Source of the DNA: a virus | Strand: one strand, 5' to 3' | DNA: 64,000 bases | IMG/VR virus record: IMGVR_UViG_3300045988_169928 | Coordinates: 45,391-109,390 of that record | Part shown: positions 10,485-63,095 of the stretch, in pieces | Layout of the letters: each line of letters opens with the position of its first letter | How positions within the stretch are numbered: the first letter of the stretch is position 1 | Made by a program: the position numbers and the translations under genes | The notes under the pieces: generated by a model | Seen by the model: only the letters and a program-made list of their open reading frames with translations | The model's database searches: none | What the model was told of the DNA's origin: nothing

Positions 10485-11459
10485 ATGGAAAATGAAACAG
10501 TCGAACGTCTGAACCCACTCTATGTTCAGTCACAAATGAAACCAATCGAGATTAAAGGAGTTGTCCAATTAATCGAACAACACTCGATTGAAAGTATCTA
10601 TGAACAGTCCTACAAGTGTCCCTGTGTCGATCCACAAACCTTACAACCAAGACCAGATTGCCCAATCTGTCATGGGCAGGGCTTTATCTTCATGCACCCT
10701 AAATCTTTGGATATTGCTTTTGTATCTGACCAAAAACAGTTCAGTCTAAATACCCAAGGAATAGATCAAAATGGGGCAACTTTGGCAACTCCTCAAATTA
10801 CTATTAACCAAGTTGAGCAAGGAATTAAACCCGGAGATCGTATTACAGTCCCCGGTTGGACTACTACTGAAAACTATATCTTCAACGTAGACCAGCAACG
10901 ATTGAATAATGGTATCTATTTACCATATAAAGTACAATCCATTAATGAAGCCTATGCCATTTCAGGTGGTAGTTTATCCCGGTTAAAAGAGGGTGATCTA
11001 ACCCTTGATGGTGACTTCTTAAAAGTAACCAACGATCAACTATTGAATAGCACTATCTCCCTAAGCCTAGAGGTAGTTAAACGTTTCTATGTAGTTAGCC
11101 TTGATAAGGAATTACGTTACCAGAAATACTTAAACCTAGCTCAAAAGTTGTGGGCGCTTGGTAATGGTACTGGCGAAATCAGCAGTGATGAAACTGATGA
11201 TTATACGACCCTTAATAGTTACCTTAGTAACCAACAGGCTATGCAAATGGATAAGGTTAAATTTCCACAAGTTCAAAAACGAGATGGGAAGCTAATTGAT
11301 ACTGGCAAGAAACAAATCTACCGTTTGCCACCCCAGTTAAGATTAAAGCGGGAAAACTTATATTTCTCAAATATTAATCTTACTAATAAGGAAAGCAATG
11401 GTAATACAGCTATTACTGACCCACGGGTTACTGAAATGAATGACTTCTTAGGTGATTAA
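10485..11459 (+). CDS. hypothetical protein with CPC...CPIC zinc-binding-like motif
   Basis: RBS GGTGGTGA upstream. KCPCVDPQTLQPRPDCPICHGQG. First gene of a tightly packed 4-gene plus-strand cassette embedded in the minus-strand morphogenesis module. Confidence 0.6.
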   Translation: MENETVERLNPLYVQSQMKPIEIKGVVQLIEQHSIESIYEQSYKCPCVDPQTLQPRPDCPICHGQGFIFMHPKSLDIAFVSDQKQFSLNTQGIDQNGATLATPQITINQVEQGIKPGDRITVPGWTTTENYIFNVDQQRLNNGIYLPYKVQSINEAYAISGGSLSRLKEGDLTLDGDFLKVTNDQLLNSTISLSLEVVKRFYVVSLDKELRYQKYLNLAQKLWALGNGTGEISSDETDDYTTLNSYLSNQQAMQMDKVKFPQVQKRDGKLIDTGKKQIYRLPPQLRLKRENLYFSNINLTNKESNGNTAITDPRVTEMNDFLGD

Positions 11460-11461
11460 TC

Positions 11462-12175
11462 ATGGCTAGTATTGGTAACTTAATCGGGCGTGAAGGTATT
11501 AACGCTTTAAAGAAATACCTTGAAGATGATATTAGTAAAGAAAAATATGTTAATTCATATGCTAAAGGGTTACAAAAGCAACTAGAACAAACTTTTGGTA
11601 AACAAGCAATTAAACTTAGCACTAATGGTTTGAAGGTTGCCTATAAAATAATTGAAGATACTAGTACCAATGAACAAATTAGGTTCATTGATCTAAAGCC
11701 ATACTTCATGCAGTCACCCAAAGCTAAGCCAACCAAAGATGGTGGCTGGTATCTAAAGATTCCAGTTGGTGGTTTCCAATCCACTACCAAAATGCGAATG
11801 GCCTATGGACGGTCACTGTGGGACGATATTAGCCACTTAAACTTTGGGGAAACTGGTGGCCAGAATGCTAATATTGAACGCTTTAAGAAAGTCCTTAATA
11901 GTTCTGGTGAAGGCGAGGGGGTACTAGCTTACCAATGGAAGTCCACCAACATTACCCGTATTCAATCAGGTGGTGGTAAGTATGGACACTACATTACTTT
12001 CAGAACCGTGTCCAATAAGTCCGACCCTATGAGTTGGGTTGTGGGGCGTAATGCTATGCAACAACAAGTCAACGCCCGGTCTTTTGACCCTCAAAAGGCT
12101 AAAATAATATCTAATATCATTCGTGAAGCCATTATTAGAAACATTGAACAGTACAACCAAAAGGAGGATATGTAA
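11462..12175 (+). CDS. hypothetical protein (cassette gene 2)
   Basis: Starts 3 nt after the previous stop. 237 aa. No recognisable motif. Confidence 0.55.
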   Translation: MASIGNLIGREGINALKKYLEDDISKEKYVNSYAKGLQKQLEQTFGKQAIKLSTNGLKVAYKIIEDTSTNEQIRFIDLKPYFMQSPKAKPTKDGGWYLKIPVGGFQSTTKMRMAYGRSLWDDISHLNFGETGGQNANIERFKKVLNSSGEGEGVLAYQWKSTNITRIQSGGGKYGHYITFRTVSNKSDPMSWVVGRNAMQQQVNARSFDPQKAKIISNIIREAIIRNIEQYNQKEDM

Positions 12176-13011
12176 TGGCCATTGTAAACGTAGATCAGTT
12201 ACTATTAGATGAAACCAATTCAATCTTAACTGGTGTCCTTGCTAATAGTAACTATCTAAAAAACAATATTCTTAATTCTCTCCCCAGTGATATGGTAGAT
12301 TCATTTATTAATGAGTATTGTACTGATAGCAATCACCTTGGAAAGAAGATTAACACCTACTTTGCCTTCCCAACTACTGCCCCAACGACCGCATTCCTCT
12401 TATTTCAATTTAAAGGGTCAGAAGAAGATGATGAATCTAGTGCCCTCGGGAGTGTTGAAGGACAAACCATCTCTAATAGTGTTGGCCAAGCTATTCATGA
12501 AAAGTTAGTTGTTAAAACCAAAAATGCAACAGCTTGGGTTGAACCTACTCAACAAATTCATAGTGTTATCTCAATCCCCCAAACCACTAATTATAACTTG
12601 CAAGATAATAAAGTTTATCTAACATATATTCCACCTTATGGTGATGGACAACACAAAATTGACCTGTATTACAATACAAAGGTTGAAAAAGATGGTTATA
12701 GCAGTCCAATTGGTATCAATACTAATGAAGGGGTAACAATTGACTTTGTATGTAGCAACATTAGTACCATTCGTTGTTTGTCTGCTATCTTTACTTATAT
12801 TCGTATATACTTAAAACAAACCTTGGAAGAAAACTATAATGTTTACCTTCCAACAATTGAGATGAATGGTATGGACGTAATTGAAGATACTAAAAGTAAT
12901 GGTTTAGATAGCCAACCACTATTCTACCGGCGCTTAACAGTTACCTACAAAGTTACCCAAACCATTGATCAGAATACTAGTCTCATTGAAAATATTAAAA
13001 CAGGGTGGTAA
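12175..13011 (+). CDS. hypothetical protein (cassette gene 3)
   Basis: ATG overlaps the previous stop (ATGGCC at 12175). 278 aa. Confidence 0.55.
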   Translation: MAIVNVDQLLLDETNSILTGVLANSNYLKNNILNSLPSDMVDSFINEYCTDSNHLGKKINTYFAFPTTAPTTAFLLFQFKGSEEDDESSALGSVEGQTISNSVGQAIHEKLVVKTKNATAWVEPTQQIHSVISIPQTTNYNLQDNKVYLTYIPPYGDGQHKIDLYYNTKVEKDGYSSPIGINTNEGVTIDFVCSNISTIRCLSAIFTYIRIYLKQTLEENYNVYLPTIEMNGMDVIEDTKSNGLDSQPLFYRRLTVTYKVTQTIDQNTSLIENIKTGW

Positions 13012-26419: not shown

Positions 26420-26630
26420 TCCTTTCTTGATTCTAAACTAATGATAGCTTTTGCAGGGTTTTTAATAATTTAGGGTTTCCCAATAATTCATTCATAGCTG
26501 ATTTAAAGTCAATCTCAACAGTCTTGTTTACAACACTGCTTATCTCTTTACTGGGGACTTTAACGAATTGTCCTCTTAACTTTTGATTCATTATTTCAAC
26601 TCCTTTCTTTACCATCTATTATATCAGTAA

Positions 26631-27443
26631 CTAACTATTTAATGAAAAACCAATTAACTTATTATATTTATCACGTTGTTTAACAGCTTCTTCCAATGTT
26701 TTGAACTCACCTAAATACTTATCTTTGCGTCCACCATATGAAACCCATTTACTACGGCGCTTATCATAATAAATATAAGAGTGTCCACTCAAACCAGGGC
26801 GTACATCACGATTACGCTGTTGTGTCTTATGTGAAGCCCATCTAATATTACCAGGAACATACCCCTTATGATTATCAATTCGATCAACAGTATAATCTGG
26901 ACTAGGCTTTGGCCCTAACTCCTTAAAAAATCCAACTGGAGAATTAATCCAATCAGGATATACTTTAGGGCCGTCAACAATCAATTCATCATAATGCTTA
27001 AATGCCTTATGCCGAGGATTAGTAGTTCGTGCAATCATAGCAATCCAACTCTGGTATCTAGGATCATTAGACAGTCCATTTTGAGACCGGGAAATATGAC
27101 CACAGCTACTAGTATGTCCACTTTTAACATCACCAATTGTAGATATAAACAATTTACCACAGGTACACTGAATTTGATAATACCAATTAAAATACTTGTC
27201 ATGATACATTGGTTTAATAACCTGAAGGCCATTAATAATTTGTCCAGAATAATCAACTTTAGGACACCAATGGCACTTAACTGTATCACCATTACGTAAA
27301 TGATCAGCTCGTACATCAATGTGATGTCCACAATCACACTTACAGTGATAATAACGAGGACGATCCTTCAAACTTTCTATGACAACTAATTTACCGAACC
27401 GTTTACCAACTGAAATTGGCGGATATTTATGGATATTAGCCAT
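26631..27443 (-). CDS. HNH homing endonuclease with C-terminal AP2 domain
   Basis: N-terminal Cys/His clusters. DRIDNHKGYVPGNIRWASHKTQQRN (HNH_3-type motif). C-terminal SKWVSYGGRKDKYLGEFKTLEEAVKQRDKY (AP2-like). Confidence 0.8.
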   Translation of the reverse strand: MANIHKYPPISVGKRFGKLVVIESLKDRPRYYHCKCDCGHHIDVRADHLRNGDTVKCHWCPKVDYSGQIINGLQVIKPMYHDKYFNWYYQIQCTCGKLFISTIGDVKSGHTSSCGHISRSQNGLSNDPRYQSWIAMIARTTNPRHKAFKHYDELIVDGPKVYPDWINSPVGFFKELGPKPSPDYTVDRIDNHKGYVPGNIRWASHKTQQRNRDVRPGLSGHSYIYYDKRRSKWVSYGGRKDKYLGEFKTLEEAVKQRDKYNKLIGFSLNS

Positions 27444-27566
27444 ATTAAATCAACCCCCTATAAAATAAAAATAGATATGCAAACTACTTATCGTCTGCAT
27501 ATCTATTATAAAACATACCTATTTAAATATCAATCAAAATAGTATTAATCATTGGGGTAGTAGAGA

Positions 27567-28184
27567 TTACCACCAGCCATTGGCTACCCAATGATCCTTA
27601 GCATTTTGCCAGCTACCGTATCGTTCTAAGCAGTAATTATCAGCTACTTGTTCTTGGTTTGCTGGCGAATAGTCACCATTTAGGTAAGAGCTGGAAAGTT
27701 GGTAGCGACCAGTATATTGACCGTTCTGGGCGGTGTAGGAGCCACCGGATTCACGCTGGGCAATCCATTCCTTAGCTTCCTGTTCACTGCTAGATTGGTT
27801 ATTGCTAGTGGTGTTATCAACTGGTTGCTGGTTAGTTTGTGGTTGACTAACACTGGCAGTTTGGTTAGCCGGTTGATGACTAACCGGTTGTTGGTTTACT
27901 GACCCAGTTAAATTTAATTGTTGACCAACCTGAATAAAATCCTTATTAGCAAGGTTGTTATCCTTAACTAATTGATCAACACTGGTATTGTAGGTAGTGG
28001 CAATTTCACTTAAAGTATCACCAGATTGAACCGTGATAATGTTTCCATTGCGAGTGCTGGCGTCAGCTTCGTCACTGTTTGATGTTACGCCAATAGCAGT
28101 CACACCTAACATTAATCCAACACCTAATACTAACTTTAACTTATTATGATTAGACTTATTAGTTTCTTTTAAAATAAAAACCAC
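27567..28184 (-). CDS. secreted LysM-domain protein with C-terminal APF/transglycosylase-like domain
   Basis: Signal-peptide-like N-terminus. LysM (ITVQSGDTLSEIATTYNTSVDQLVKDNNL). The C-terminal GRYQLSSSYLNGDYSPANQEQVADNYCLERYGSW...ANGWW resembles the conserved C-terminal domain of Lactobacillus aggregation-promoting-factor / LysM-transglycosylase proteins (from memory). Confidence 0.55.
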   Translation of the reverse strand: MVFILKETNKSNHNKLKLVLGVGLMLGVTAIGVTSNSDEADASTRNGNIITVQSGDTLSEIATTYNTSVDQLVKDNNLANKDFIQVGQQLNLTGSVNQQPVSHQPANQTASVSQPQTNQQPVDNTTSNNQSSSEQEAKEWIAQRESGGSYTAQNGQYTGRYQLSSSYLNGDYSPANQEQVADNYCLERYGSWQNAKDHWVANGWW

Positions 28185-31789: not shown

Positions 31790-31862
31790 GCTAATTTAGC
31801 TCAATTGGCAGAGCGCCTGCCTTGTAAGCAGGAGGCTACAAGTTCGATTCTTGTAATTAGCA
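31790..31862 (+). tRNA. tRNA-Thr (anticodon UGU)
   Basis: Cloverleaf: acceptor GCTAATT/AATTAGC+A. Anticodon stem CCTGC/GCAGG with loop CTTGTAA. T-arm GTTCGATTC. Confidence 0.8.
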
Positions 31863-31926
31863 TTGTTGGCCATTTCTAACTTTCTCTTTTTTATCAATTC
31901 CCACTAGATCTTGTGGCCAACATTTT

Positions 31927-32015
31927 GGAGAATTACCCAAGTTGGTTGAAGGGGCACCCCTGCTAAGGGTGTAGGCCGGGAAACTGGTGCGAGAGTTCGA
32001 ATCTCTCATTCTCCG
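31927..32015 (+). tRNA. tRNA-Ser (anticodon GCU), long variable arm
   Basis: Acceptor GGAGAAT/ATTCTCC+G. Anticodon stem CACCC/GGGTG with loop CTGCTAA. Long extra arm. T-loop GTTCGAATC. Confidence 0.75.
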
Positions 32016-32120
32016 TTGCAACATCAACATATTGTTGAACCGTTGCAAACCTGACCGATATTTGATAATTTTTAGCCCGTAAAAATTTTGCAGTCGCTAT
32101 TAGTTCAGGTTGTTTAAGTG

Positions 32121-35563: not shown

Positions 35564-35709
35564 TCGAATAATCACTAAAAGCCCTTAGAAACGATTCTAG
35601 GGGCTTTCTTTTTTATAAAATAAAATGTATCTTTTTTTGTATTTGGTGTTTCAAAAAAATATAAATGTGATATAATAAAGTCATCAACAAATGAAAGAAG
35701 GGATTAAAA

Positions 35710-35904
35710 TTGAAGCAAGAAGATATGACAGAGTTAGATAAGGCTAAGGCTGTTATCGTTGACAAGAATAATAGCTTTGCCAAATTAAGAGAAGTGGCCG
35801 GTGGTTCTATTTCACGTCTTAATGTCTACCGTCATAACCCTGAAAAGTTAAGAACAGCAAGGTGGATTGTTGTTCACAATCTAGCTAGTCTGTATCATGA
35901 ATAG
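35710..35904 (+). CDS. small protein, possible HTH
   Basis: Track start is TTG; an ATG lies 5 codons downstream (MTELDKAK). SFAKLREVAGGSISRLNVY is weakly HTH-like. Confidence 0.35.
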   Translation: MKQEDMTELDKAKAVIVDKNNSFAKLREVAGGSISRLNVYRHNPEKLRTARWIVVHNLASLYHE

Positions 35905-35915
35905 AAGGAATAAAC

Positions 35916-36728
35916 ATGGAAAACAAATTACAACTATTTGATTTCAAAGGGCAACAAGTCCGCACAGTGATCATTGACAATGAGCCTTACTTCGTTGGTA
36001 AGGACGTTGCAATGATTCTTGGATATAAAGATTTAAGCCGTGCTCTTAATCAGCACGTAGAAAAAGAAAGCCGCAAGTCCTTGTCCCTCAAGGCTTCGGG
36101 CGATTCGTACCCTAGCCTATGGGAAGGCAAAAACGATTTTTCAAATAAGATAGTAATTAATGAGTCGGGAGTTTATGATTTGATTTTTAATTCCCAATTA
36201 CCGAAAGCTCATGAGTTCAAACACTGGGTCACTAGCGAAGTCCTCCCATCAATTCGCAAGCACGGTGCCTATTTAACGCCAGACAAGATTGAGGAAGTCT
36301 TGTTGAACCCAGATACTTTGATTAAACTTGCAACAGAACTCAAGAAAGAACGTGAAGGGCGTGTGTTGGCTGAACAAAAAATCCAACAGGATCGTCCAAA
36401 AGTCTTATTCGCTGACGCAGTATCAGCAAGTGACACGCCTATTCTAATTGGTGAGTTAACAAAGATCTTAAAGCAAAATGGGATTGAGATTGGACAGAAC
36501 CGATTGTTTGTTTGGTTAAGGAGTAAAGGCTACCTAATCTCACGGAATGGTACAGACTACAATACACCAACACAGAAAAGCATGGAATTAGGTCTATTTA
36601 AGATTAAAGAACGCACCCGTGTTTCTAGTGACGGTAGTGTTAAGATCACTAAGACGTCAATGGTAACGGGTAAAGGTCAGCAATACTTTGTTAATAAGTT
36701 TTTAGGCGAGAAATATAGTATCAAGTAA
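35916..36728 (+). CDS. antirepressor (Bro-N domain + KilA-C/ANT C-terminal domain)
   Basis: FDFKGQQVRTVIIDNEPYFVGKDVAMILGY (Bro-N). C-terminal RPKVLFADAVSASDTPILIGELTKIL...FVWLRSKGYLISRNG (KilAC). Confidence 0.8.
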   Translation: MENKLQLFDFKGQQVRTVIIDNEPYFVGKDVAMILGYKDLSRALNQHVEKESRKSLSLKASGDSYPSLWEGKNDFSNKIVINESGVYDLIFNSQLPKAHEFKHWVTSEVLPSIRKHGAYLTPDKIEEVLLNPDTLIKLATELKKEREGRVLAEQKIQQDRPKVLFADAVSASDTPILIGELTKILKQNGIEIGQNRLFVWLRSKGYLISRNGTDYNTPTQKSMELGLFKIKERTRVSSDGSVKITKTSMVTGKGQQYFVNKFLGEKYSIK

Positions 36729-36740
36729 AGGAGTTTTACA

Positions 36741-37490
36741 ATGAAATATAAAGAATTTATTCAAGCAGTTGATTCATTAACTAATGAGGCTTTAGTAGCA
36801 AACAAGGAGGCTATTCCTTGGAAGGTCGATATTGATGATCAAGATGTTAAAGTAGTTAATCAAAAGACGGGTCAGCCATTGCTTAAAATCAGTAAACATA
36901 CTTATGGTACTATGCTAGTATATCAACTAACTGATTCAACAGCAGTTAGTATCTTTGAGGAGGCGGTTTTGCTTAATGAAACTCCTCTAGATGAACGTGA
37001 TGAAGTTGTTAATTACAATCCCTTACATGATTCCATTAACTTTTTGAAGGAAGTATCTAGCCAACTTACTCGAGGGTTGACCCAACAAAACTGGAACTCA
37101 AATGGGGAAGAATATCGGACGTTTTACTTTGTATGTTTCAAGTTGTGGGCAACCAAAGAATTTGTAACAGTTAATGGCCCACACTTACAAGGGTCTTTAT
37201 CATTAAAATGTAAGTCTACGGACACTTTTGAGGATAAGATTAAGAGTTTGATTCATATGGCTAACATATTCAAAGACGCCTTATCTTTGCGTGAAGAAAC
37301 CATTAATTCGGCTTTGGAAGTTCTAGATGACCATAAAGATGATCCATCACTCCAGTTTAGCATGGGTAGGATTATCATTAATAACAAGCATATTATTATC
37401 TCTACTGATTCTGGTGCCTACTTCATGTGGACAAATAAGCCAACCTATTTTGGATCACAAAAAAAGTTCCACGAAATCCTTGACGACTAA
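36741..37490 (+). CDS. hypothetical protein
   Basis: RBS AAGGAG. 249 aa. Confidence 0.5.
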   Translation: MKYKEFIQAVDSLTNEALVANKEAIPWKVDIDDQDVKVVNQKTGQPLLKISKHTYGTMLVYQLTDSTAVSIFEEAVLLNETPLDERDEVVNYNPLHDSINFLKEVSSQLTRGLTQQNWNSNGEEYRTFYFVCFKLWATKEFVTVNGPHLQGSLSLKCKSTDTFEDKIKSLIHMANIFKDALSLREETINSALEVLDDHKDDPSLQFSMGRIIINNKHIIISTDSGAYFMWTNKPTYFGSQKKFHEILDD

Positions 37491-38105: not shown

Positions 38106-38117
38106 GTGGTGAAAAGA

Positions 38118-39038
38118 ATGTCTTTAAAAGATATACAAGATTATTTTACAATTGTAGATGACGCAGGTAGCTTACAGAATTATACAGGCAACCCAGATTA
38201 TGCGTTAGATGATAAATGGAAGAATATCAGCCTAGATGATTTAGGGTTAAATAAAGATATTATTCAACAGGAATTACTTGGTTTAGGGAGGGATTTAGTA
38301 GACCCAGTAACTGGTGAATCCTATTCAGATGAGTTCTATCAGAATATGTTAATTCGGGCAGTCTCACAAACAGAGAAGAAGTTTGACTTGGCAATTCTTC
38401 CTCGGTTACAAGTTGATCGGCTAGACTATCACCGGAATGATTTTAATGCGTTTGCTTATATGAATACAACTTTACGGCCAATTTTGACGGTAAAAGATTT
38501 AACATTGTACTATAACAATCAAACGATTATGCGAGTTCCTATGGAATGGGTCAAGGTTAATAATCGTTCGGGTCAGATTCAGGTTTCTCCTAGTATCTTA
38601 ATGCAAGGGTTAAATACAACCATTAACCCGACTATCTACCCAATCCTTTCTAACCCGTATGGTATGGCTCCAACACCATTCCAACAGATTGAAGTAAGTC
38701 CTCAAATGCTAGGGGTAACATCTGTTGTGGGTATGATGCCGGCTAGTGATCGAATTGGTGAGTTCCATGACTATCAGATTCAGCCAGACGTCCAATCCTA
38801 TGTGGCTAAACTAGCCGCAATTGAAATTCTAGAAAAGTGGGGTCGTAACATTATCGGGGCTGGGATTGCTTCCTATAATGTTTCGATGGACGGAATTTCA
38901 ACGGGAATGAACACCACAGCAAGTGCCGAAAATACGGCTACCACGGCTGATATTAAGTTACTACAATCAGATATGAAATCTTTAGCAGACGGTATCAAAG
39001 CATACTATGGTAACCCAGAAATTGGTTTTTACAATTAA
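38118..39038 (+). CDS. hypothetical (possibly virion-associated) protein whose C-terminal 16 aa are duplicated at the end of the next gene
   Basis: ATG at 38118 with RBS AGGTGGTGA (the track starts at GTG 38106). C-terminus ...LADGIKAYYGNPEIGFYN. Confidence 0.6.
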   Translation: MSLKDIQDYFTIVDDAGSLQNYTGNPDYALDDKWKNISLDDLGLNKDIIQQELLGLGRDLVDPVTGESYSDEFYQNMLIRAVSQTEKKFDLAILPRLQVDRLDYHRNDFNAFAYMNTTLRPILTVKDLTLYYNNQTIMRVPMEWVKVNNRSGQIQVSPSILMQGLNTTINPTIYPILSNPYGMAPTPFQQIEVSPQMLGVTSVVGMMPASDRIGEFHDYQIQPDVQSYVAKLAAIEILEKWGRNIIGAGIASYNVSMDGISTGMNTTASAENTATTADIKLLQSDMKSLADGIKAYYGNPEIGFYN

Positions 39039-39099
39039 AGCTATTGATAAATAAAACAAACTTCTGTATTATTGATGATGTAGATACGGGGGGTTTATT

Positions 39100-40038
39100 A
39101 TGGTAAAACGTAAAACAGATAAACAATTTAAACAAGAGGTCTTTGACCTAGTAGGTAATGAATATACATTCTTAGATACTTATGTTAATACTATGACTAA
39201 GATAAGAGTTAAACATAATAAATGTGGGAATACCTACGAGGTAACACCTGATAATTTTCTACATGGCAATCGTTGTTCATATTGTGCAGGTAATGCTAGG
39301 AAAACAGATAAACAATTTAAACAAGAAGTATTTGACCTAGTAGGTAGTGAATACACATTTTTAGATAAATATGTTAATAGTCAAACCAAGTTAAGGGTTA
39401 AGCATAATAATTGTGGAAATGTTTACAGGGTTATCCCCAATAATTTTCTTAGGGGTAAGCGTTGTTCATATTGTTATGGTAATACTAAGAAAACAGATAA
39501 ACAATTTAAACAAGAAGTCTTTGACCTAGTAGGTAATGAGTATACATTCTTAGATCCTTATGTTAGTAACGAGACTAAGATAAGAGTTAAACATAATAAA
39601 TGTGGAAATGTATATAAGGTAATACCCACTAATTTTCTTAGGGGTAAGCGTTGTCCTTTTTGCACCGACACCCCTAAAGGTGAACTTATTATCATTAAAA
39701 TTTTAGATAAGCTAGGTATTAATTATGATTACCAGAAAACGTTTGATGATCTGAAAGATGATAGGCTTTTATCCTATGATTTCTATCTTCCAGATCAGAA
39801 TATCCTAATTGAGTACCAAGGACTACAACATTACCAACCAATTGATTACTTTGGTGGAGAAACTAAGTTTAAAATCCAACAGAAACATGACCAGATGAAG
39901 TTGAATTATGCTAAAAAACATGGATACAATTTAATCTTAGTTCCATACACAGTAGATACTTTACCTAAGATTATGAAGGATCTGGCCAATGGTATTAAGG
40001 CTTACTATGGAAATCCAGAGGTTGGTTTCTACAACTAA
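39100..40038 (+). CDS. freestanding endonuclease (putative homing endonuclease): 3 tandem zinc-ribbon repeats + C-terminal Vsr/DUF559-like PD-(D/E)xK nuclease domain
   Basis: Three ~63-aa repeats KTDKQFKQEVFDLVG.EYTFLD.YVN..TK.RVKHNKCGN.Y.V.P.NFL.G.RC.YC. C-terminal YDFYLPDQNILIEYQGLQHYQP (Vsr-like D...E.QG.QH pattern). Ends with NGIKAYYGNPEVGFYN copied from the upstream gene. Confidence 0.65.
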   Translation: MVKRKTDKQFKQEVFDLVGNEYTFLDTYVNTMTKIRVKHNKCGNTYEVTPDNFLHGNRCSYCAGNARKTDKQFKQEVFDLVGSEYTFLDKYVNSQTKLRVKHNNCGNVYRVIPNNFLRGKRCSYCYGNTKKTDKQFKQEVFDLVGNEYTFLDPYVSNETKIRVKHNKCGNVYKVIPTNFLRGKRCPFCTDTPKGELIIIKILDKLGINYDYQKTFDDLKDDRLLSYDFYLPDQNILIEYQGLQHYQPIDYFGGETKFKIQQKHDQMKLNYAKKHGYNLILVPYTVDTLPKIMKDLANGIKAYYGNPEVGFYN

Positions 40039-50848: not shown

Positions 50849-50870
50849 ATATGGTATTGGATTTTAGACT

Positions 50871-51107
50871 ATGTATGATATAATTAAACCATCAATTAGG
50901 AAAGTTAGAGGTGAAATCATAATGGATTCTAAAGACAAAATCATAATGAACTCTAAAGGAGAAATTATAATGGATTCTAAATGGAGTGCCTTAGGAAAAG
51001 GCTTAGCGATCTGTGGGATTTGTGGTCTTATTGTAGCAGAACTATATTTTAAGGCTCCGGGCTGGGTATTTGGTTGGTCACTCTTTGCACTAATTATTTC
51101 GTTATAA
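50871..51107 (+). CDS. small membrane protein preceded by triplicated RBS-ATG repeat
   Basis: 24-nt unit GAAATCATAATGGATTCTAAAGAC x3 (50913-50984). The hydrophobic C-terminal 45 aa (MDSKWSALGKGLAICGICGLIVAELYF...) is the likely product. Confidence 0.45.
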   Translation: MYDIIKPSIRKVRGEIIMDSKDKIIMNSKGEIIMDSKWSALGKGLAICGICGLIVAELYFKAPGWVFGWSLFALIISL

Positions 51108-51165
51108 TAAAAGAAGTAATTAAAAAGGACTGGTTAATACCAGCCCTTTTATCTTATAAAAGCTA

Positions 51166-51193
51166 TTGACTTTTAGGTTATGTATGCTATACT
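51166..51193 (+). promoter_or_regulatory. promoter, family C copy 2 (TTGACT-TTTAGGTTATGTATGC-TATACT), after terminator 51122-51155
   Basis: Conserved with copy 3 at 52239-52267. The ORF-track ORF starting at 51166 begins in this promoter. Confidence 0.55.
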
Positions 51194-51225
51194 TGAACCA
51201 TCAATTATGGAAAGAGGTAGCTAAT

Positions 51226-51898: not shown

Positions 51899-52183
51899 AT
51901 GACTAAGACAGATGAATTTATTAAAAAAGTAGAACAGCTTAACCCACACCTAACCGTAGACAAGTATCATAACTTGTATGGTCGTGACCATAGCAAAGTA
52001 GATATGATTATTTGGTATCGAAAAGACATTAACACCGTAATGTCTTTTGCCTCCATCACTTATCTTCATGGTACGCCCGTAGTTGAGACAAGTCACAACT
52101 CTTTAGATAAAGATTATTTAGCTTTGTATAGTGATGTTATTAATCTATGTGTAGAATACTTTCCCTACTTTTTTAGGGAATAA
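51899..52183 (+). CDS. hypothetical protein
   Basis: 94 aa. Followed by terminator 52191-52220 (family C copy 3) and tandem promoters TTGACA 52225 and TTGACT-N17-TATGAT 52239-52267. Confidence 0.45.
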   Translation: MTKTDEFIKKVEQLNPHLTVDKYHNLYGRDHSKVDMIIWYRKDINTVMSFASITYLHGTPVVETSHNSLDKDYLALYSDVINLCVEYFPYFFRE

Positions 52184-52300
52184 GTATAAGAGGCTGGTTA
52201 ACACCAGTCTTTTTTGTTTAGGCTTTGACATAAATATATTGACTTTTAGGGTTTGATATGCTATGATTGGGCTATCAAGTAAAGAAAGAGGCAATCAATT

Positions 52301-53065
52301 ATGAAGTTTGAACTTAAAGGATATGTTTTTGAATTTAAGCCCGTTAAACGTAGTGAGATTATTGATTTAATGATTAATTACCATTATCTACACCGGAAGG
52401 TTGCTACTAAGTATGCTTATGGTTTGTTTGCAGATAATGAGTTAAAGGGAATGATTACCTACACAGCTCCACGATTAAGTCTTGCTCGTTCTATTAGTGA
52501 AGAGGCAAATCAAGATAACACCTTAGAACTTTCCCGATTGTATATCAAGGACGAGATTTCTCAAAATGTTCCTAACATTACTTCCCGCTTTGTGTCTTGG
52601 ACTTTACGTGAACTCAAGAAGCAAGGTAATTGGTTTATTATTTCGTTTGCTGATTCTAGTATGGGCCATGTTGGGAGTATCTACCAAGCAACCAACTTTC
52701 TTTATTGTGGGACTACTAAAAGTGGTATGTTATGCTATAATGGGCCTTTCAAACAAGGTGGCACATGGGTTAAGGGGGTTCATTATCGGTTTTTACTTAT
52801 TCGGAGTATCAAGCATAGGTATATCAAATTTGTTGGTGATCGTCGCTTTCAAAAGGGGGCTAAAAAAGACCTCAAGCTGGATATTGTCCCTCACCCTCAT
52901 GGACTTGGCGCCCATTATGAAGTTGGAGATGTTGAAACTCGCTTCATTAAGGATCGAAAAACAGGCCGTATCTATACCGAAGCACAGTTACTTAGATCTT
53001 TCCCGGATTACGACTGGGATAATCAAGACTGGGGAATAGAGGATATTAATACACCTAATAAGTAG
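52301..53065 (+). CDS. hypothetical protein (weak GNAT/Mom-like resemblance, speculative)
   Basis: 254 aa. ...FADSSMGHVGSIYQATNFLYCG is faintly reminiscent of acyl-CoA-binding motif A of GNAT-fold proteins. Confidence 0.5.
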   Translation: MKFELKGYVFEFKPVKRSEIIDLMINYHYLHRKVATKYAYGLFADNELKGMITYTAPRLSLARSISEEANQDNTLELSRLYIKDEISQNVPNITSRFVSWTLRELKKQGNWFIISFADSSMGHVGSIYQATNFLYCGTTKSGMLCYNGPFKQGGTWVKGVHYRFLLIRSIKHRYIKFVGDRRFQKGAKKDLKLDIVPHPHGLGAHYEVGDVETRFIKDRKTGRIYTEAQLLRSFPDYDWDNQDWGIEDINTPNK

Positions 53066-53076
53066 GGGGTGATATA

Positions 53077-54363
53077 ATGACAAAACGTAAAACAGATGAG
53101 GAGTTCCAGCAAGAAATTTACAGTCTAGTAGGCGATGAATACACATTTCTAGATAAATATGTTAATGCAAGGACAAAACTAAGGGTAAAACATAACGAGT
53201 GTAATTTTGTATATTCCGTTTCTCCCCACAACTTTTTAACAGGCAAACGTTGTCCCAATTGTTTTAAGACACCCAAGAAAAGTGATATTCAGTTTCAGCA
53301 TGAAGTTCATACTTTAGTGGGTGATGAATACACATTTTTAGATCCTTATGTTAACAATAAAACAAAGCTAAGGGTAAAGCATAATGTATGTGGAAATGTC
53401 TATAAAGTTAGGGCTTCATCTTTTTTAGATGGTAGTCGTTGTCCATATTGCGCAGGACTGGTTAAGAAAACAGATAAACAGTTCAAACAAGAAATTTACA
53501 ATTTAGTAAATGATGAGTACACATTCCTAGATTCTTATGTTAATACTAATACCAAGTTAAGGGTTAAACACAATAAATGTGGGAATGCCTATGAGGTTAC
53601 ACCCTCTAAGTTTTTATCTGGTGAGCGCTGTCCTTACTGTGCAGGACTTGTTAAGAAAACAGATACCCAGTTCAAACATGAAGTTAACATTTTGGTGGGC
53701 GATGAGTACACATTCCTAGATAGATATGTTAATGCTTATACAAAAATTAGGGTTAAACACAACAAATGTAATTTTATATATTCTGTTGCTCCTACTAATT
53801 TCCTTAGGGGTAGTCGCTGTCCTCATTGCTATCTAGTTAATAAATCAAAGTCGGATAATCTCTTTAAACAGGAGGTTTCTAGCCTTGTTGGCGATGAATA
53901 CACAATATTAGATACTTATACTAATGCGGAATCCAAGATTAGGTTAAGACATAATAAATGTGGAAATGTTTATAAAACTCGACCTCGTACTTTTCTTGAA
54001 GGGTATCGTTGCCCATATTGTAATAGTCCTAAGGGGGAAACTGTTATTACTAAGCTGTTAGATACTTTTAGTATTGATTATGAGTATCAAAAAACCTTTG
54101 AGGATCTAAAAGATAAGTCATATTTGTCTTATGATTTCTATATTCCAGACCAGAACATCTTAATTGAATATCAAGGGATTCAACATTATCAACCTGTAGA
54201 CCTTTTTGGTGGAGATGATAGATTTATTAATCAACAAAAGCATGACCAGATGAAGTTAGACTATGCTAAAGATCATGGTTATAATTTAATTGCTGTTCCC
54301 TACACAGAAGATACTTTCTCTAAGATTAAAAAGTATCTGACTAAGCATGGACTAAAGAAGTAG
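53077..54363 (+). CDS. freestanding endonuclease paralogue: 5 zinc-ribbon repeats + Vsr/DUF559-like nuclease domain
   Basis: Five repeats of K.D.QF..E...LVGDEYTFLD.YVN..TK.RVKHN.C...Y.V....FL.G.RCP.C. C-terminal YDFYIPDQNILIEYQGIQHYQP. Confidence 0.65.
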   Translation: MTKRKTDEEFQQEIYSLVGDEYTFLDKYVNARTKLRVKHNECNFVYSVSPHNFLTGKRCPNCFKTPKKSDIQFQHEVHTLVGDEYTFLDPYVNNKTKLRVKHNVCGNVYKVRASSFLDGSRCPYCAGLVKKTDKQFKQEIYNLVNDEYTFLDSYVNTNTKLRVKHNKCGNAYEVTPSKFLSGERCPYCAGLVKKTDTQFKHEVNILVGDEYTFLDRYVNAYTKIRVKHNKCNFIYSVAPTNFLRGSRCPHCYLVNKSKSDNLFKQEVSSLVGDEYTILDTYTNAESKIRLRHNKCGNVYKTRPRTFLEGYRCPYCNSPKGETVITKLLDTFSIDYEYQKTFEDLKDKSYLSYDFYIPDQNILIEYQGIQHYQPVDLFGGDDRFINQQKHDQMKLDYAKDHGYNLIAVPYTEDTFSKIKKYLTKHGLKK

Positions 54364-59526: not shown

Positions 59527-59636
59527 ATAGTGTTGAAGCTTGTCTATATGACGGGCTTTTTATTTTGTAGAAACTTATTGATTTATTGTTGTCATAGGTT
59601 TATAATAAAAAATATAAATTAGTAAGGTGAAATATC

Positions 59637-60809
59637 TTGAGAAGAAAAACAAATGATCAGTTTCAACAGGAAGTTTACGATCTTGTGAGAGATGAATATA
59701 TATTCTTAGATACTTATGTTAATAAACGTACAAAAATTAAAGTTAAACATAACAAATGCGGTCATATCTATAAGGTAACTCCTGGTGACTTTCTTTGTGG
59801 TAGGCGCTGTCCTTATTGTTTTGGTAATTTAAAAAAGACAGACGCTCAATTCAAACATGAAGTTTACACTTTGGTAGGTGATGAATATGCTTTCTTAGAA
59901 CCATATGTTAATAATAAGACTAAAATTAAGGTTAGGCATAATAAATGTGGCAATATCTATGAAGTAAAGCCTGATGGTTTCTTGCGTGGTAATCGTTGCC
60001 CATACTGTGCAAGTACAGCTATAAAAACAAATGAGCAGTTTCAACAGGAGGTTTATGATCTCGTTGGAGATGAGTATTTATTTTTAGAATCCTATCAAAA
60101 AGCACTTACAAAAATTAAGGTAAAGCATAATAAATGCGGTAGTATCTATAAAGTCAAGCCTAGTGATTTTCTACATGGCGAACGTTGCCCATATTGTAAT
60201 GGTAATGCTAAGAAAACAGACGTCCAGTTTAAAAAGGAAGTTTATAATCTAGTTGGTGATGATTATAAATTCCTAGATGTCTATGTTAATAATGTTGCTA
60301 AACTTAGGGTAAAACACAATAAATGTGGAAACATTTACGAAGTTAGACCTAGTGATTTTCTCCGTGGCACCCGTTGTCCTTACTGTAATACCCCTAAAGG
60401 TGAGGTTATCATTAATAAAATTCTAAAGTCATTAGGGACCAAGTATGAGTATCAGAAAACGTTTGATGATCTTGTAGATAAGTCCTATCTTTCTTATGAT
60501 TTCTATATCCCCAGTCAATCCATCTTAATTGAATATCAAGGGATTCAACATTACCAGCCTACTGATTATTTTGGTGGAGAAGCTACCTTTAAGAGACAGC
60601 AAAAACATGATAAGATGAAGCTAGACTATGCTAAGTCTCATGGTTATAAATTAATTACTGTACCATATACGGAAGATACTTTCTCTAAGATTAAGGGGTA
60701 TTTGATTAAGCATGGGTTAGCTGATGAAAATACTTCGGTAGATACAGATACACTCCATCGACTGTTTGACGAGAATAAAGAAGTGATGGATTGGCTAAAG
60801 GACAAGTGA
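59637..60809 (+). CDS. freestanding endonuclease paralogue: 4 zinc-ribbon repeats + Vsr/DUF559-like nuclease domain
   Basis: TTG start with RBS AAGGTGA. Four repeats. C-terminal YDFYIPSQSILIEYQGIQHYQP. Extra acidic tail. Confidence 0.65.
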   Translation: MRRKTNDQFQQEVYDLVRDEYIFLDTYVNKRTKIKVKHNKCGHIYKVTPGDFLCGRRCPYCFGNLKKTDAQFKHEVYTLVGDEYAFLEPYVNNKTKIKVRHNKCGNIYEVKPDGFLRGNRCPYCASTAIKTNEQFQQEVYDLVGDEYLFLESYQKALTKIKVKHNKCGSIYKVKPSDFLHGERCPYCNGNAKKTDVQFKKEVYNLVGDDYKFLDVYVNNVAKLRVKHNKCGNIYEVRPSDFLRGTRCPYCNTPKGEVIINKILKSLGTKYEYQKTFDDLVDKSYLSYDFYIPSQSILIEYQGIQHYQPTDYFGGEATFKRQQKHDKMKLDYAKSHGYKLITVPYTEDTFSKIKGYLIKHGLADENTSVDTDTLHRLFDENKEVMDWLKDK

Positions 60810-61559: not shown

Positions 61560-62084
61560 ATGACTAAGAAATACAAGCTAACTCATCACACTAAGGAAGT
61601 AGATGGTCATACCCTTCACCGAATTAAGGCTCTAAAGTCCTTTGGTGATGTAACGAAAGGAGATCTAGGCGGTTGGGTTGAAAGTTACCGTAATCTATCT
61701 CAATCAGATTATGCTTGGGTCTATGACAAAGCTAAAGTTTATGGTGACGCCCGAGTTTTTGATAATGCAAAAGTTAATGATCATGCCCGAGTTTACGGTG
61801 ACGCTTGGGTTTACAAAAACGCTTGGGTCTATGGTCACGCTCGAGTTAGTGGTGCCGCAGGTGTGTCAGGAAATGCTTGGGTTCATGGTCATGCTAAAGT
61901 TTATGATAATGCTAAAGTTTGGGGTAATGTCCTAGTTTATGACCATGCTCATGTTTGCGGGAACGCTATGATTTACGATAATGATATGGTTTATGGTCGT
62001 ACTAAGGTTTATAATCATACTCAAGTATATGGTAAAGATTGGGTTTGTTCTCATATCCAACCTTGGGATATTGATAATAAATAA
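61560..62084 (+). CDS. hexapeptide-repeat (beta-helix-like) protein, short paralogue
   Basis: Conserved ~55-aa N-domain MTKKYKLTHHTKEVDGHTLHRIKALKSFGDVTKGDLGGW, then ~18 hexapeptides [NHD]A.V.[GDN]. Confidence 0.6.
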   Translation: MTKKYKLTHHTKEVDGHTLHRIKALKSFGDVTKGDLGGWVESYRNLSQSDYAWVYDKAKVYGDARVFDNAKVNDHARVYGDAWVYKNAWVYGHARVSGAAGVSGNAWVHGHAKVYDNAKVWGNVLVYDHAHVCGNAMIYDNDMVYGRTKVYNHTQVYGKDWVCSHIQPWDIDNK

Positions 62085-62096
62085 AGGAGGTTTCTT

Positions 62097-63095
62097 ATGA
62101 CTAAGAAGTATGAATTAACAGATAATACTAAGGAAATATTGGGTCACACCCTCCATCAAATTAAGGCTTTAAAAGCGTTTGGTGATGTAAAGAAGGGTGA
62201 TCTAGGGGGTTGGATTGAAGATTACTCTAACCTCTCCCAATCCGGTAATGCTTGGGTCTATGACAATGCTAAAGTTTATAAGAATGCTGTAGTTTATGGT
62301 CAGGCCCAGATCCGTGGTAATGCATGGGTCTATAATCACACTAAGGTTTTAGATAATGCTAAAGTTTGTGGTGAGGCTTGTATCTATGATCATGCTAGAG
62401 TATTAGATAATGCCCAAGTTGGTGGTAATGCTTGGGTTTATAATAATGCTTATGTTGTAGGCAACGCCAAAGTTGCAGGTAAGGCCCAGATTTATGGTAA
62501 TGCTTGTGTCTATGATAATGCGATAGTACGTGGCCATGCCGAGATTTATGACCATGCTTCGGTTTATGGCAACGCTTGGGTTTTTGATGATACCAAAGTT
62601 TGGGGTTGTGCGTCTATTACAGGTAAGACTAAAGTATATGGGGACGCTCGAATCTATGGCAGTGCTAAGGTTCATGGTAACGCCATCGTATGTGGCTATG
62701 CTCACGTTTGTGGTAATACCCATGTCTATGATAATGCTAAAGTCTATGGTGATAGTATCTTGCAAGGACGAATTAACATTCGGGAAGATGATGATATTAA
62801 GGACAAGTATTCTTATCTAATCTTTAATAACACTTGGTCATCAGGGCGGCAGTTTGTTTACGTCCTATCTAATCAGCGATGGCACGTTGGTTGCTTTAAT
62901 GGAACAGGGGAAGAACTAATTAAGAAAGCATACAAGGATTCGGAATTATCGGGAAAGATGTACGAGATGTATGTTCATTTTGCTGAACAAGCGGTTAAGA
63001 CCCAAGCTAAGATCCAACAGCAACAACAATCACACAAGAAATTCCCTCTTTGGTTAGATTCATATCCAAGTTGGCGAGACTGGTTAGGACTATAG
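62097..63095 (+). CDS. hexapeptide-repeat (beta-helix-like) protein, long paralogue with C-terminal globular domain
   Basis: Same N-domain, ~29 hexapeptides (NAWVYD NAKVYK NAVVYG ...), then a ~100-aa C-terminal domain. Confidence 0.6.
   Translation: MTKKYELTDNTKEILGHTLHQIKALKAFGDVKKGDLGGWIEDYSNLSQSGNAWVYDNAKVYKNAVVYGQAQIRGNAWVYNHTKVLDNAKVCGEACIYDHARVLDNAQVGGNAWVYNNAYVVGNAKVAGKAQIYGNACVYDNAIVRGHAEIYDHASVYGNAWVFDDTKVWGCASITGKTKVYGDARIYGSAKVHGNAIVCGYAHVCGNTHVYDNAKVYGDSILQGRINIREDDDIKDKYSYLIFNNTWSSGRQFVYVLSNQRWHVGCFNGTGEELIKKAYKDSELSGKMYEMYVHFAEQAVKTQAKIQQQQQSHKKFPLWLDSYPSWRDWLGL

Follow-up and report, generated by a model that had tools for sequence, protein, structure and literature searches.

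Three paralogous genes for probable free-standing homing endonucleases with CapR-like repeat arrays and a predicted Vsr-like nuclease domain in a Lactobacillus phage

The stretch of DNA analyzed here (64,000 nucleotides of the IMG/VR record IMGVR_UViG_3300045988_169928, in the following referred to as the window) stems from a Lactobacillus phage of the Herelleviridae type and is collinear with Lactobacillus phage LfeInf (Herelleviridae) at approximately 95% identity. Its plus strand carries three paralogous genes, termed A (39100-40038, 312 aa, ATG start), B (53077-54363, 428 aa, ATG start), and C (59637-60809, 390 aa, TTG start). The first-pass annotation had assigned to these open reading frames a common architecture with 3, 5, and 4 copies, respectively, of a repeat of about 63 aa, and the coordinates, the architecture, and the copy numbers were all confirmed. 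Repeat units were delimited by cutting after each R-C-x-x-C, which resulted in units of 61-64 aa on the plus strand, namely three in A (r1 39100-39285, r2 39286-39474, r3 39475-39663), five in B (r1 53077-53262, r2 53263-53451, r3 53452-53640, r4 53641-53829, r5 53830-54021), and four in C (r1 59637-59819, r2 59820-60008, r3 60009-60197, r4 60198-60386). When aligned, the units are internally gap-free and share pairwise identities of 50-77%. The nuclease domain follows on the same strand from 39664 in A, at 54022-54360 in B, and from 60387 in C. On the DNA level, Tandem Repeats Finder detected a period of 189 bp both in A, with 2.9 copies and 82% matches, and in B, with 75-78% matches; no period was reported for C, as its repeats are too diverged as DNA.

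Just upstream of each of the three units lies a promoter-like site, in front of A and C by consensus match only. The site in front of A reads TTGATA-17-TATTAT (39044-39072, +), and the one in front of C reads TTGATT-17-TATAAT (59578-59606, +) and is accompanied by a terminator-like hairpin (59535-59559, +), likewise a consensus match only. An Rfam search over the whole window found neither a group I nor a group II intron. All three genes are therefore free-standing, and an intron-encoded origin was rejected. A protein identical to A (P0211) was found on 11 metagenome contigs.

The repeats had initially been likened to zinc ribbons. The assignment to a zinc-finger-type module was upheld by Pfam, while the name had to be corrected to CapR/DUF4379. 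CapR (PF21817) matched A, B, and C with E = 1.6e-09 to 8e-16, and DUF4379, which is described in Pfam as a 'probable treble clef zinc finger', with E = 1e-06 to 4e-09. Both matches were above the gathering cut-offs and covered 3-4 stretches each per search, so that the Pfam check proposed for the repeats returned a domain known for DNA binding. With PHROG 559, E-values of 1e-95 to 1e-126 were obtained for the three proteins. On the basis of the Pfam and PHROG values, the repeat architecture is therefore not a chance finding. For many homologues, DUF723 is listed in addition, and a search against NCBIfam yielded zinc-finger noise below threshold and nothing else.

The one histidine and three cysteines noticed earlier in each repeat correspond to H40, C43, C60, and C63 in repeat numbering (H-x2-C...C-x2-C), and all four are invariant in an alignment of 36 repeats. 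The same residues occur in 410 distinct 63-aa repeats of homologues; since this set was pre-filtered for them, it is no independent test of their invariance. Within the 410 repeats, the scaffold is nearly fixed, and positions 9, 28, 33, 50, 52, 56, and 58 as well as the linker are hypervariable (at least 3 bits), which makes these positions candidates for determining specificity. CapR is a zinc-finger DNA-binding domain initially investigated in the capsid repressor of the Vibrio PLE satellites (10.1101/2023.03.23.533998), and the CasPR anti-CRISPR repressors also depend on it for binding DNA. Judging from their sequence, the repeats of A, B, and C would likewise bind zinc and DNA.

All three proteins share a C-terminal domain of approximately 110 aa (...SYDFY[IL]P..[NS]ILIEYQG[IL]QHYQP...QQKHD.MK...), and the Y-D-F-Y...IEYQG.QHY segment described for them at first reading is present in A, B, and C. 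This domain had been likened to Vsr-type nucleases rather than to the GIY-YIG or LAGLIDADG families, and structural prediction agrees with that view. The AF2 model of the domain, built from 24 homologues, reached a pLDDT of 95.2, and its best two matches in Foldseek were 3r3p (I-Bth0305I) and 1vsr, which points to a Vsr-like alpha/beta nuclease fold. The domain residues E6/D38/Q51/H55/D75 are invariant or near-invariant, and the same holds for D, E, Q, H, and H/D-K across the 24 homologues. The predicted catalytic sets, which fit the E-D-x-H-D pattern of the EDxHD family, are E195/D227/Q240/H244/D264 in A, E321/D353/Q366/H370/D390 in B, and E256/D288/Q301/H305/D325 in C. With sequence positions compared, the E-D-Q-H-D order and spacing resemble those of Vsr (E25/D51/H64/H69/D97) and of I-Bth0305I (E170/D196/N208/H213/D222).

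Searches on the sequence level gave less. Neither Pfam nor NCBIfam matched the C-terminal domain; in Pfam, no Vsr or DUF559 family was detected on A, B, or C (E <= 1), nor any HNH, GIY-YIG, LAGLIDADG, or T5orf172 signal, and the N-terminus showed no NUMOD or HTH match, being occupied by the CapR array. A PD-DExK model in PADLOC matched the nuclease core weakly (E 1e-5). When A was compared with all PDB chains by phmmer, no relevant match was obtained, and neither this search nor the 24-sequence nuclease profile run against all PDB sequences reached 3R3P or Vsr (E <= 10). An hhalign comparison of the nuclease alignment with E. coli Vsr placed the Asp of the YDF motif on D51, with a non-significant probability of 0.1. 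The family link therefore rests on the predicted structure, according to which the nuclease domain is a distant outgroup of the EDxHD/Vsr-like homing endonucleases. As these form the sixth recognized family, the earlier proposal that the genes stand outside the classical homing-endonuclease families had to be given up. The label 'HNH endonuclease', which is carried by LfeInf gp005 and several homologues, was rejected as well, because no HNH domain is found by Pfam or NCBIfam and the predicted fold is Vsr-like; on gp005 and the phage homologues, this label looks like a mis-annotation.

The first-pass annotation had further considered the proteins an under-described class. This is a fair description, but the architecture was already reported in 2025 by Merk et al., who noted in passing a "large unrecognized outgroup of EDxHD/Vsr HEGs" (NAR 2025, PMC12350094). 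Staphylococcus phages S6 and MarsHill are represented by their intron ORFs in the supplementary table of that paper (PMC12350094), and the intron HEGs of Merk et al. consist of 3-5 domains of about 60 aa related to CapR/DUF4379/DUF723, followed by a Vsr-like nuclease of about 100 aa (PMC12350094). In BLASTP, B aligned with the group II intron HEG of phage S6 (29% identity over 406 aa, E 1e-47) and with that of MarsHill (27% identity, E 2e-26) across both the repeats and the nuclease. A, B, and C thus belong to a known, recently noted class of phage homing endonucleases. While the HEGs of Merk et al. reside in group I and II introns (PMC12350094), the genes of the window are free-standing and found in a Lactobacillus phage of the Herelleviridae. 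For this subclass, we found no published bench test or DNA cleavage for any member.

The class is of considerable extent. A domain profile comprising the nuclease core and half of the last repeat matched 45,401 clusters (50% identity level), of which 5,009 reached E <= 1e-30, and the fetched homologues contain 1 to 9 repeats, with 3-5 being the commonest counts. The nuclease domain was found in 474 cultured phage genomes, mostly of phages of Staphylococcus, Enterococcus, Bacillus, Streptococcus, Lactobacillus, and Lactococcus, and the matched region is labeled in public phage records as, among others, 'HNH endonuclease' or 'hypothetical protein'. The sheer size of the family and its multiple copies in contigs of Herelleviridae size would also suit nucleases of conflict, which attack the DNA of competing phages (marker exclusion) or of the host and for which their own mobility is incidental. 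Phage free-standing nucleases at the boundaries of genetic exchange fit this idea, as do weak PADLOC matches to a PD-DExK defence-associated model. However, these matches cover the nuclease core only (E 1e-5 to 1e-4), and PADLOC assigned A, B, and C to no defence system, nor is there a defence-system gene context. We regard a role primarily in conflict as unlikely; since the cutting of a competitor is the same event as being copied into it, such a role is not separable from homing with the present data.

At the first of the three loci, gene A is not present in LfeInf. It follows a gene at 38106-39038, which in turn precedes the tail sheath gene, and is separated from it by a spacer brought by the insertion (39040..39099, +) that contains a G-rich ribosome-binding site before the ATG. 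The comparison of alleles revealed two forms of the insertion. In a metagenomic allele (L007), A is located right after the stop codon of the upstream gene, where it replaces a spacer of about 20 bp, and it ends in its native C-terminus ...KIKKYLTRHGLNL. The window and a further allele (L006, protein 85% identical to A) contain a derived form, in which the last ~11 nuclease codons, encoding the native tail, are replaced in-frame by a second, LfeInf-like copy of the terminal 71 bp of the upstream gene (39968..40038, +). The join lies at a short similarity (GATTATGAAGGA vs GATATGAAAGA). As a consequence, which had been overlooked at first reading, the ~17 aa at the end of A (ANGIKAYYGNPEVGFYN) represent the duplicated C-terminus of the upstream gene product and not part of the nuclease.

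Every occupied allele shows sharp recoding at the functional 3' end of the upstream gene. Compared with the nuclease-free LfeInf, the final 70 bp of this gene contain 16 mismatches in the window versus 0-1 per 70 bp further upstream, and only 3 amino acids are changed; the tract (38969..39039, +) is a candidate for a co-conversion tract or an altered target. Its start coincides with the edge of the 71-bp duplication, and from this shared point we infer that the break in the empty allele would have occurred close by. Based on the sequence comparison, A would cut in the gene that precedes the tail sheath gene, at approximately 60-70 bp before the stop codon and near CAGATATGAAAGACTTAGC, so that the duplication junction provides a specific prediction of the cut position. 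In the fused alleles, the last ~50 bp of the gene and the intergenic region persist downstream of the nuclease in an almost intact, LfeInf-like form. Either the target is therefore not wholly inside this stretch, or A is inactive; the copy would be tolerated because it would not contain more than one side of the target. The divergence of the flank could also be explained by ordinary recombination with a diverged phage instead of a nuclease-driven co-conversion. A similar arrangement is reportedly known from the mitochondrial atp6 gene of Allomyces (Paquin et al. 1994), where a mobile endonuclease element with a GIY-YIG-type ORF at the 3' end is said to supply a replacement 3' end and to leave the resident one as a downstream duplicate. 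That element belongs to a eukaryotic organelle; in the window, by contrast, the nuclease reading frame continues into the leftover 3' end.

Gene B is not present in LfeInf either. It is part of a two-gene cassette (52179..54357, +) that is missing from LfeInf and replaces 290 bp of that genome holding gp010. Within the cassette, a terminator-like element (52188-52213, +) and a promoter-like site (52239-52267, +) are followed by a gene for a Mom-family protein of 254 aa (PF25680, E 3.8e-31; 52301..53065, +), which is located directly upstream of B and arrived together with it in the window. The order of Mom gene and nuclease is the same in a second locus, L009 (4001-5178), while in L010 (2868-5218) the nuclease precedes a Mom-NUMOD gene and overlaps with it. 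In two further cases (P0061 and P0088), Mom and the CapR/Vsr-fold nuclease are fused as single ORFs. The Mom proteins of L010 and P0061 possess a C-terminal region resembling the NUMOD of I-HmuI.

Adjacent in two loci, overlapping in a third, and fused in two ORFs, the partners could be read as a pair akin to restriction-modification, in which the Mom modification protects or marks the carrier and B cuts unmodified rivals. However, the linkage occurs in a single Mom subfamily only (at least 60% identical), and no nuclease of this class adjoins the distant Mom genes checked in Listeria phage A511 and Staphylococcus phage Alsa_1; the association is therefore lineage-specific. Furthermore, A and C have no Mom partner, the fusions could be due to gene-calling read-through, and hitch-hiking of useful anti-restriction cargo explains the linkage equally well and more simply. 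We thus consider a functional pair very improbable, and the recurrent linkage rather suggests that these nucleases help to spread anti-restriction cargo. A related-locus search with the Mom-like protein among viral contigs gave no match. In L009, the cassette directly adjoins a CorA gene, and its left junction therefore differs between phages. Slightly upstream of the cassette, at approximately 50850-51225 of the window versus 10558-12411 of LfeInf, gp014-gp016 are missing from the window, including the gene of a CorA-type Mg2+ transporter.

Gene C is common to the window and LfeInf (gp005). Between the two phages, identity amounts to 93-100% in the flanks and over the initial ~110 bp of the gene, drops to 57-80% from repeat 1 through repeat 4 and into the beginning of the nuclease domain, and then recovers. 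Among four alleles of this locus, identity varies from 63% to 98% repeat by repeat. According to these profiles, the putative DNA-binding array of C has been exchanged within a fixed locus, which, along with the variable repeat number among homologues, supports the modular evolution proposed in the first-pass annotation. The last 30 aa of C (60717-60806, LADENTSVDTDTLHRLFDENKEVMDWLKDK) are 100% conserved in gp005, whereas the rest of the gene is about 69% identical. This tail runs past the end point of B and may represent what is left of a resident ORF after fusion with the nuclease, in analogy to the locus of A; no second copy of it was found in the window or in LfeInf.

Regarding selection, dN/dS values of 0.14-0.38 were obtained across the repeats and the nuclease, with the lowest values (0.14-0.18) in the nuclease domain, and the nuclease genes are hence under purifying selection. 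Their dS ranged from 0.25 to 1.0 and was far above that of the flanking gene (0.11). Purifying selection of this kind bears on the idea that the proteins are domesticated, their CapR arrays serving as repressors or silencers (like PLE CapR and the CasPR anti-CRISPRs) and their nuclease being vestigial. In favor of this idea, there are documented proteins in which the CapR domain serves regulation alone; moreover, C occupies one fixed locus in both phages, and in A, part of the last helix is replaced by the foreign tail. However, the whole E-D-Q-H-D set is invariant in A, B, C, and their homologues, and the presence/absence polymorphism of A and B and their flank signatures are typical of mobile nuclease genes. 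With the catalytic set intact and the nuclease the most strongly constrained part, domestication is very unlikely.

Taken together, we assign a probability of roughly 0.8 to A, B, and C being active free-standing homing endonucleases, in which the CapR array recognizes the target, the Vsr-fold domain cuts it, and repair copies the gene. The comparison with LfeInf, which lacks A and B and carries a different array in C, indicates mobility. In the proposed mechanism, the N-terminal array of 3-5 zinc-binding CapR-like modules would read a long DNA site, with each module combining a conserved scaffold and a few hypervariable positions. The C-terminal domain would perform a Mg2+-dependent cleavage with its E-D-Q-H-D set and would probably act as a dimer, as does I-Bth0305I. 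During co-infection, the nuclease-free allele of a related phage would be cut, and recombinational repair from the nuclease-bearing genome would copy the gene and adjacent DNA into the break.

In comparison with known systems, the EDxHD prototype I-Bth0305I (PDB 3R3P; PMC3239194) is without detectable sequence-profile similarity to A, B, and C. It is intron-encoded and contains NUMOD/HTH motifs where the three proteins, encoded by free-standing genes, have an array of CapR zinc modules; the x position of the EDxHD signature is Q instead of N, and the spacing from H to D is longer in A, B, and C. E. coli Vsr nicks T:G mismatches, has no repeat array, and differs in its role, and A, B, and C give no Pfam match of the Vsr or DUF559 type. 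With regard to the DNA-binding part, the T5orf172 endonucleases of the GIY-YIG superfamily with CapR/DUF723/DUF4397, for example ICP1 gp174, utilize a repeated zinc-finger module as in A, B, and C (10.1101/2023.03.23.533998), while their nuclease domain is different and unrelated. Barth et al. found CapR in 41.5% of the T5orf172 homing endonucleases they surveyed, often in multiple copies (10.1101/2023.03.23.533998), and in those of phages the repeat number shifts by recombination between CapR repeats (10.1101/2023.03.23.533998). They resemble the genes described here also in being free-standing and located at boundaries of genetic exchange (10.1101/2023.03.23.533998).

What this comparison adds to the class are the empty and occupied sites, the in-frame tail fusion, the array swap, and the Mom linkage; empty-site alleles, a fusion to the tail of the target gene, and a Mom-linked cassette were not found in Merk et al. 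(PMC12350094). The window phage and LfeInf provide an occupied/empty allele pair at two sites and one site with a swapped array. A more far-reaching reading is that of a modular DNA-reading array, in which each 63-aa zinc module covers a fixed stretch of base pairs with its specificity set by the hypervariable positions, and shuffling of 1-9 modules retargets the enzyme in analogy to a zinc-finger nuclease, coupled in one lineage with Mom to a mobile cut-and-protect unit. This combination is speculative and in our judgment doubtful; if the rule of one module per site stretch were true, it would offer a new compact scaffold for targeted nucleases.

Several other features of the window were recorded. 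On the minus strand, a 270-aa ORF (26631-27443) that is not in LfeInf is situated inside a LfeInf-absent stretch (~26611-27640). By eye, it shows an HNH-like motif (DRIDNHKGYVPGNIRWASHKTQQRN), an AP2-like C-terminus, and two N-terminal Cys/His clusters, and Pfam reported a weak zinc-ribbon match only; it is probably the homing endonuclease called 'HNH-AP2' at first reading. Two tRNA genes (31790-32016, +), Thr-TGT and Ser-GCT, are conserved with LfeInf. An antirepressor-like ORF of the Bro-N/KilAC (ANT) type is found at 35916-36728 (+), within a region (35620-36741) without a megablast match to LfeInf, which has gp034 ('DNA helicase') there. A full-length match to ROOL RNA (Rfam RF03087; 37503-38048, +; 124.6 bits, gathering 99.1) is situated immediately before the structural gene of whose 3' end A bears a duplicate. 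Finally, two adjoining ORFs with YdcK beta-solenoid/hexapeptide repeats (61560-63095, +) match four places in LfeInf on the DNA level with 74-82% identity, pointing to a small family of paralogues.
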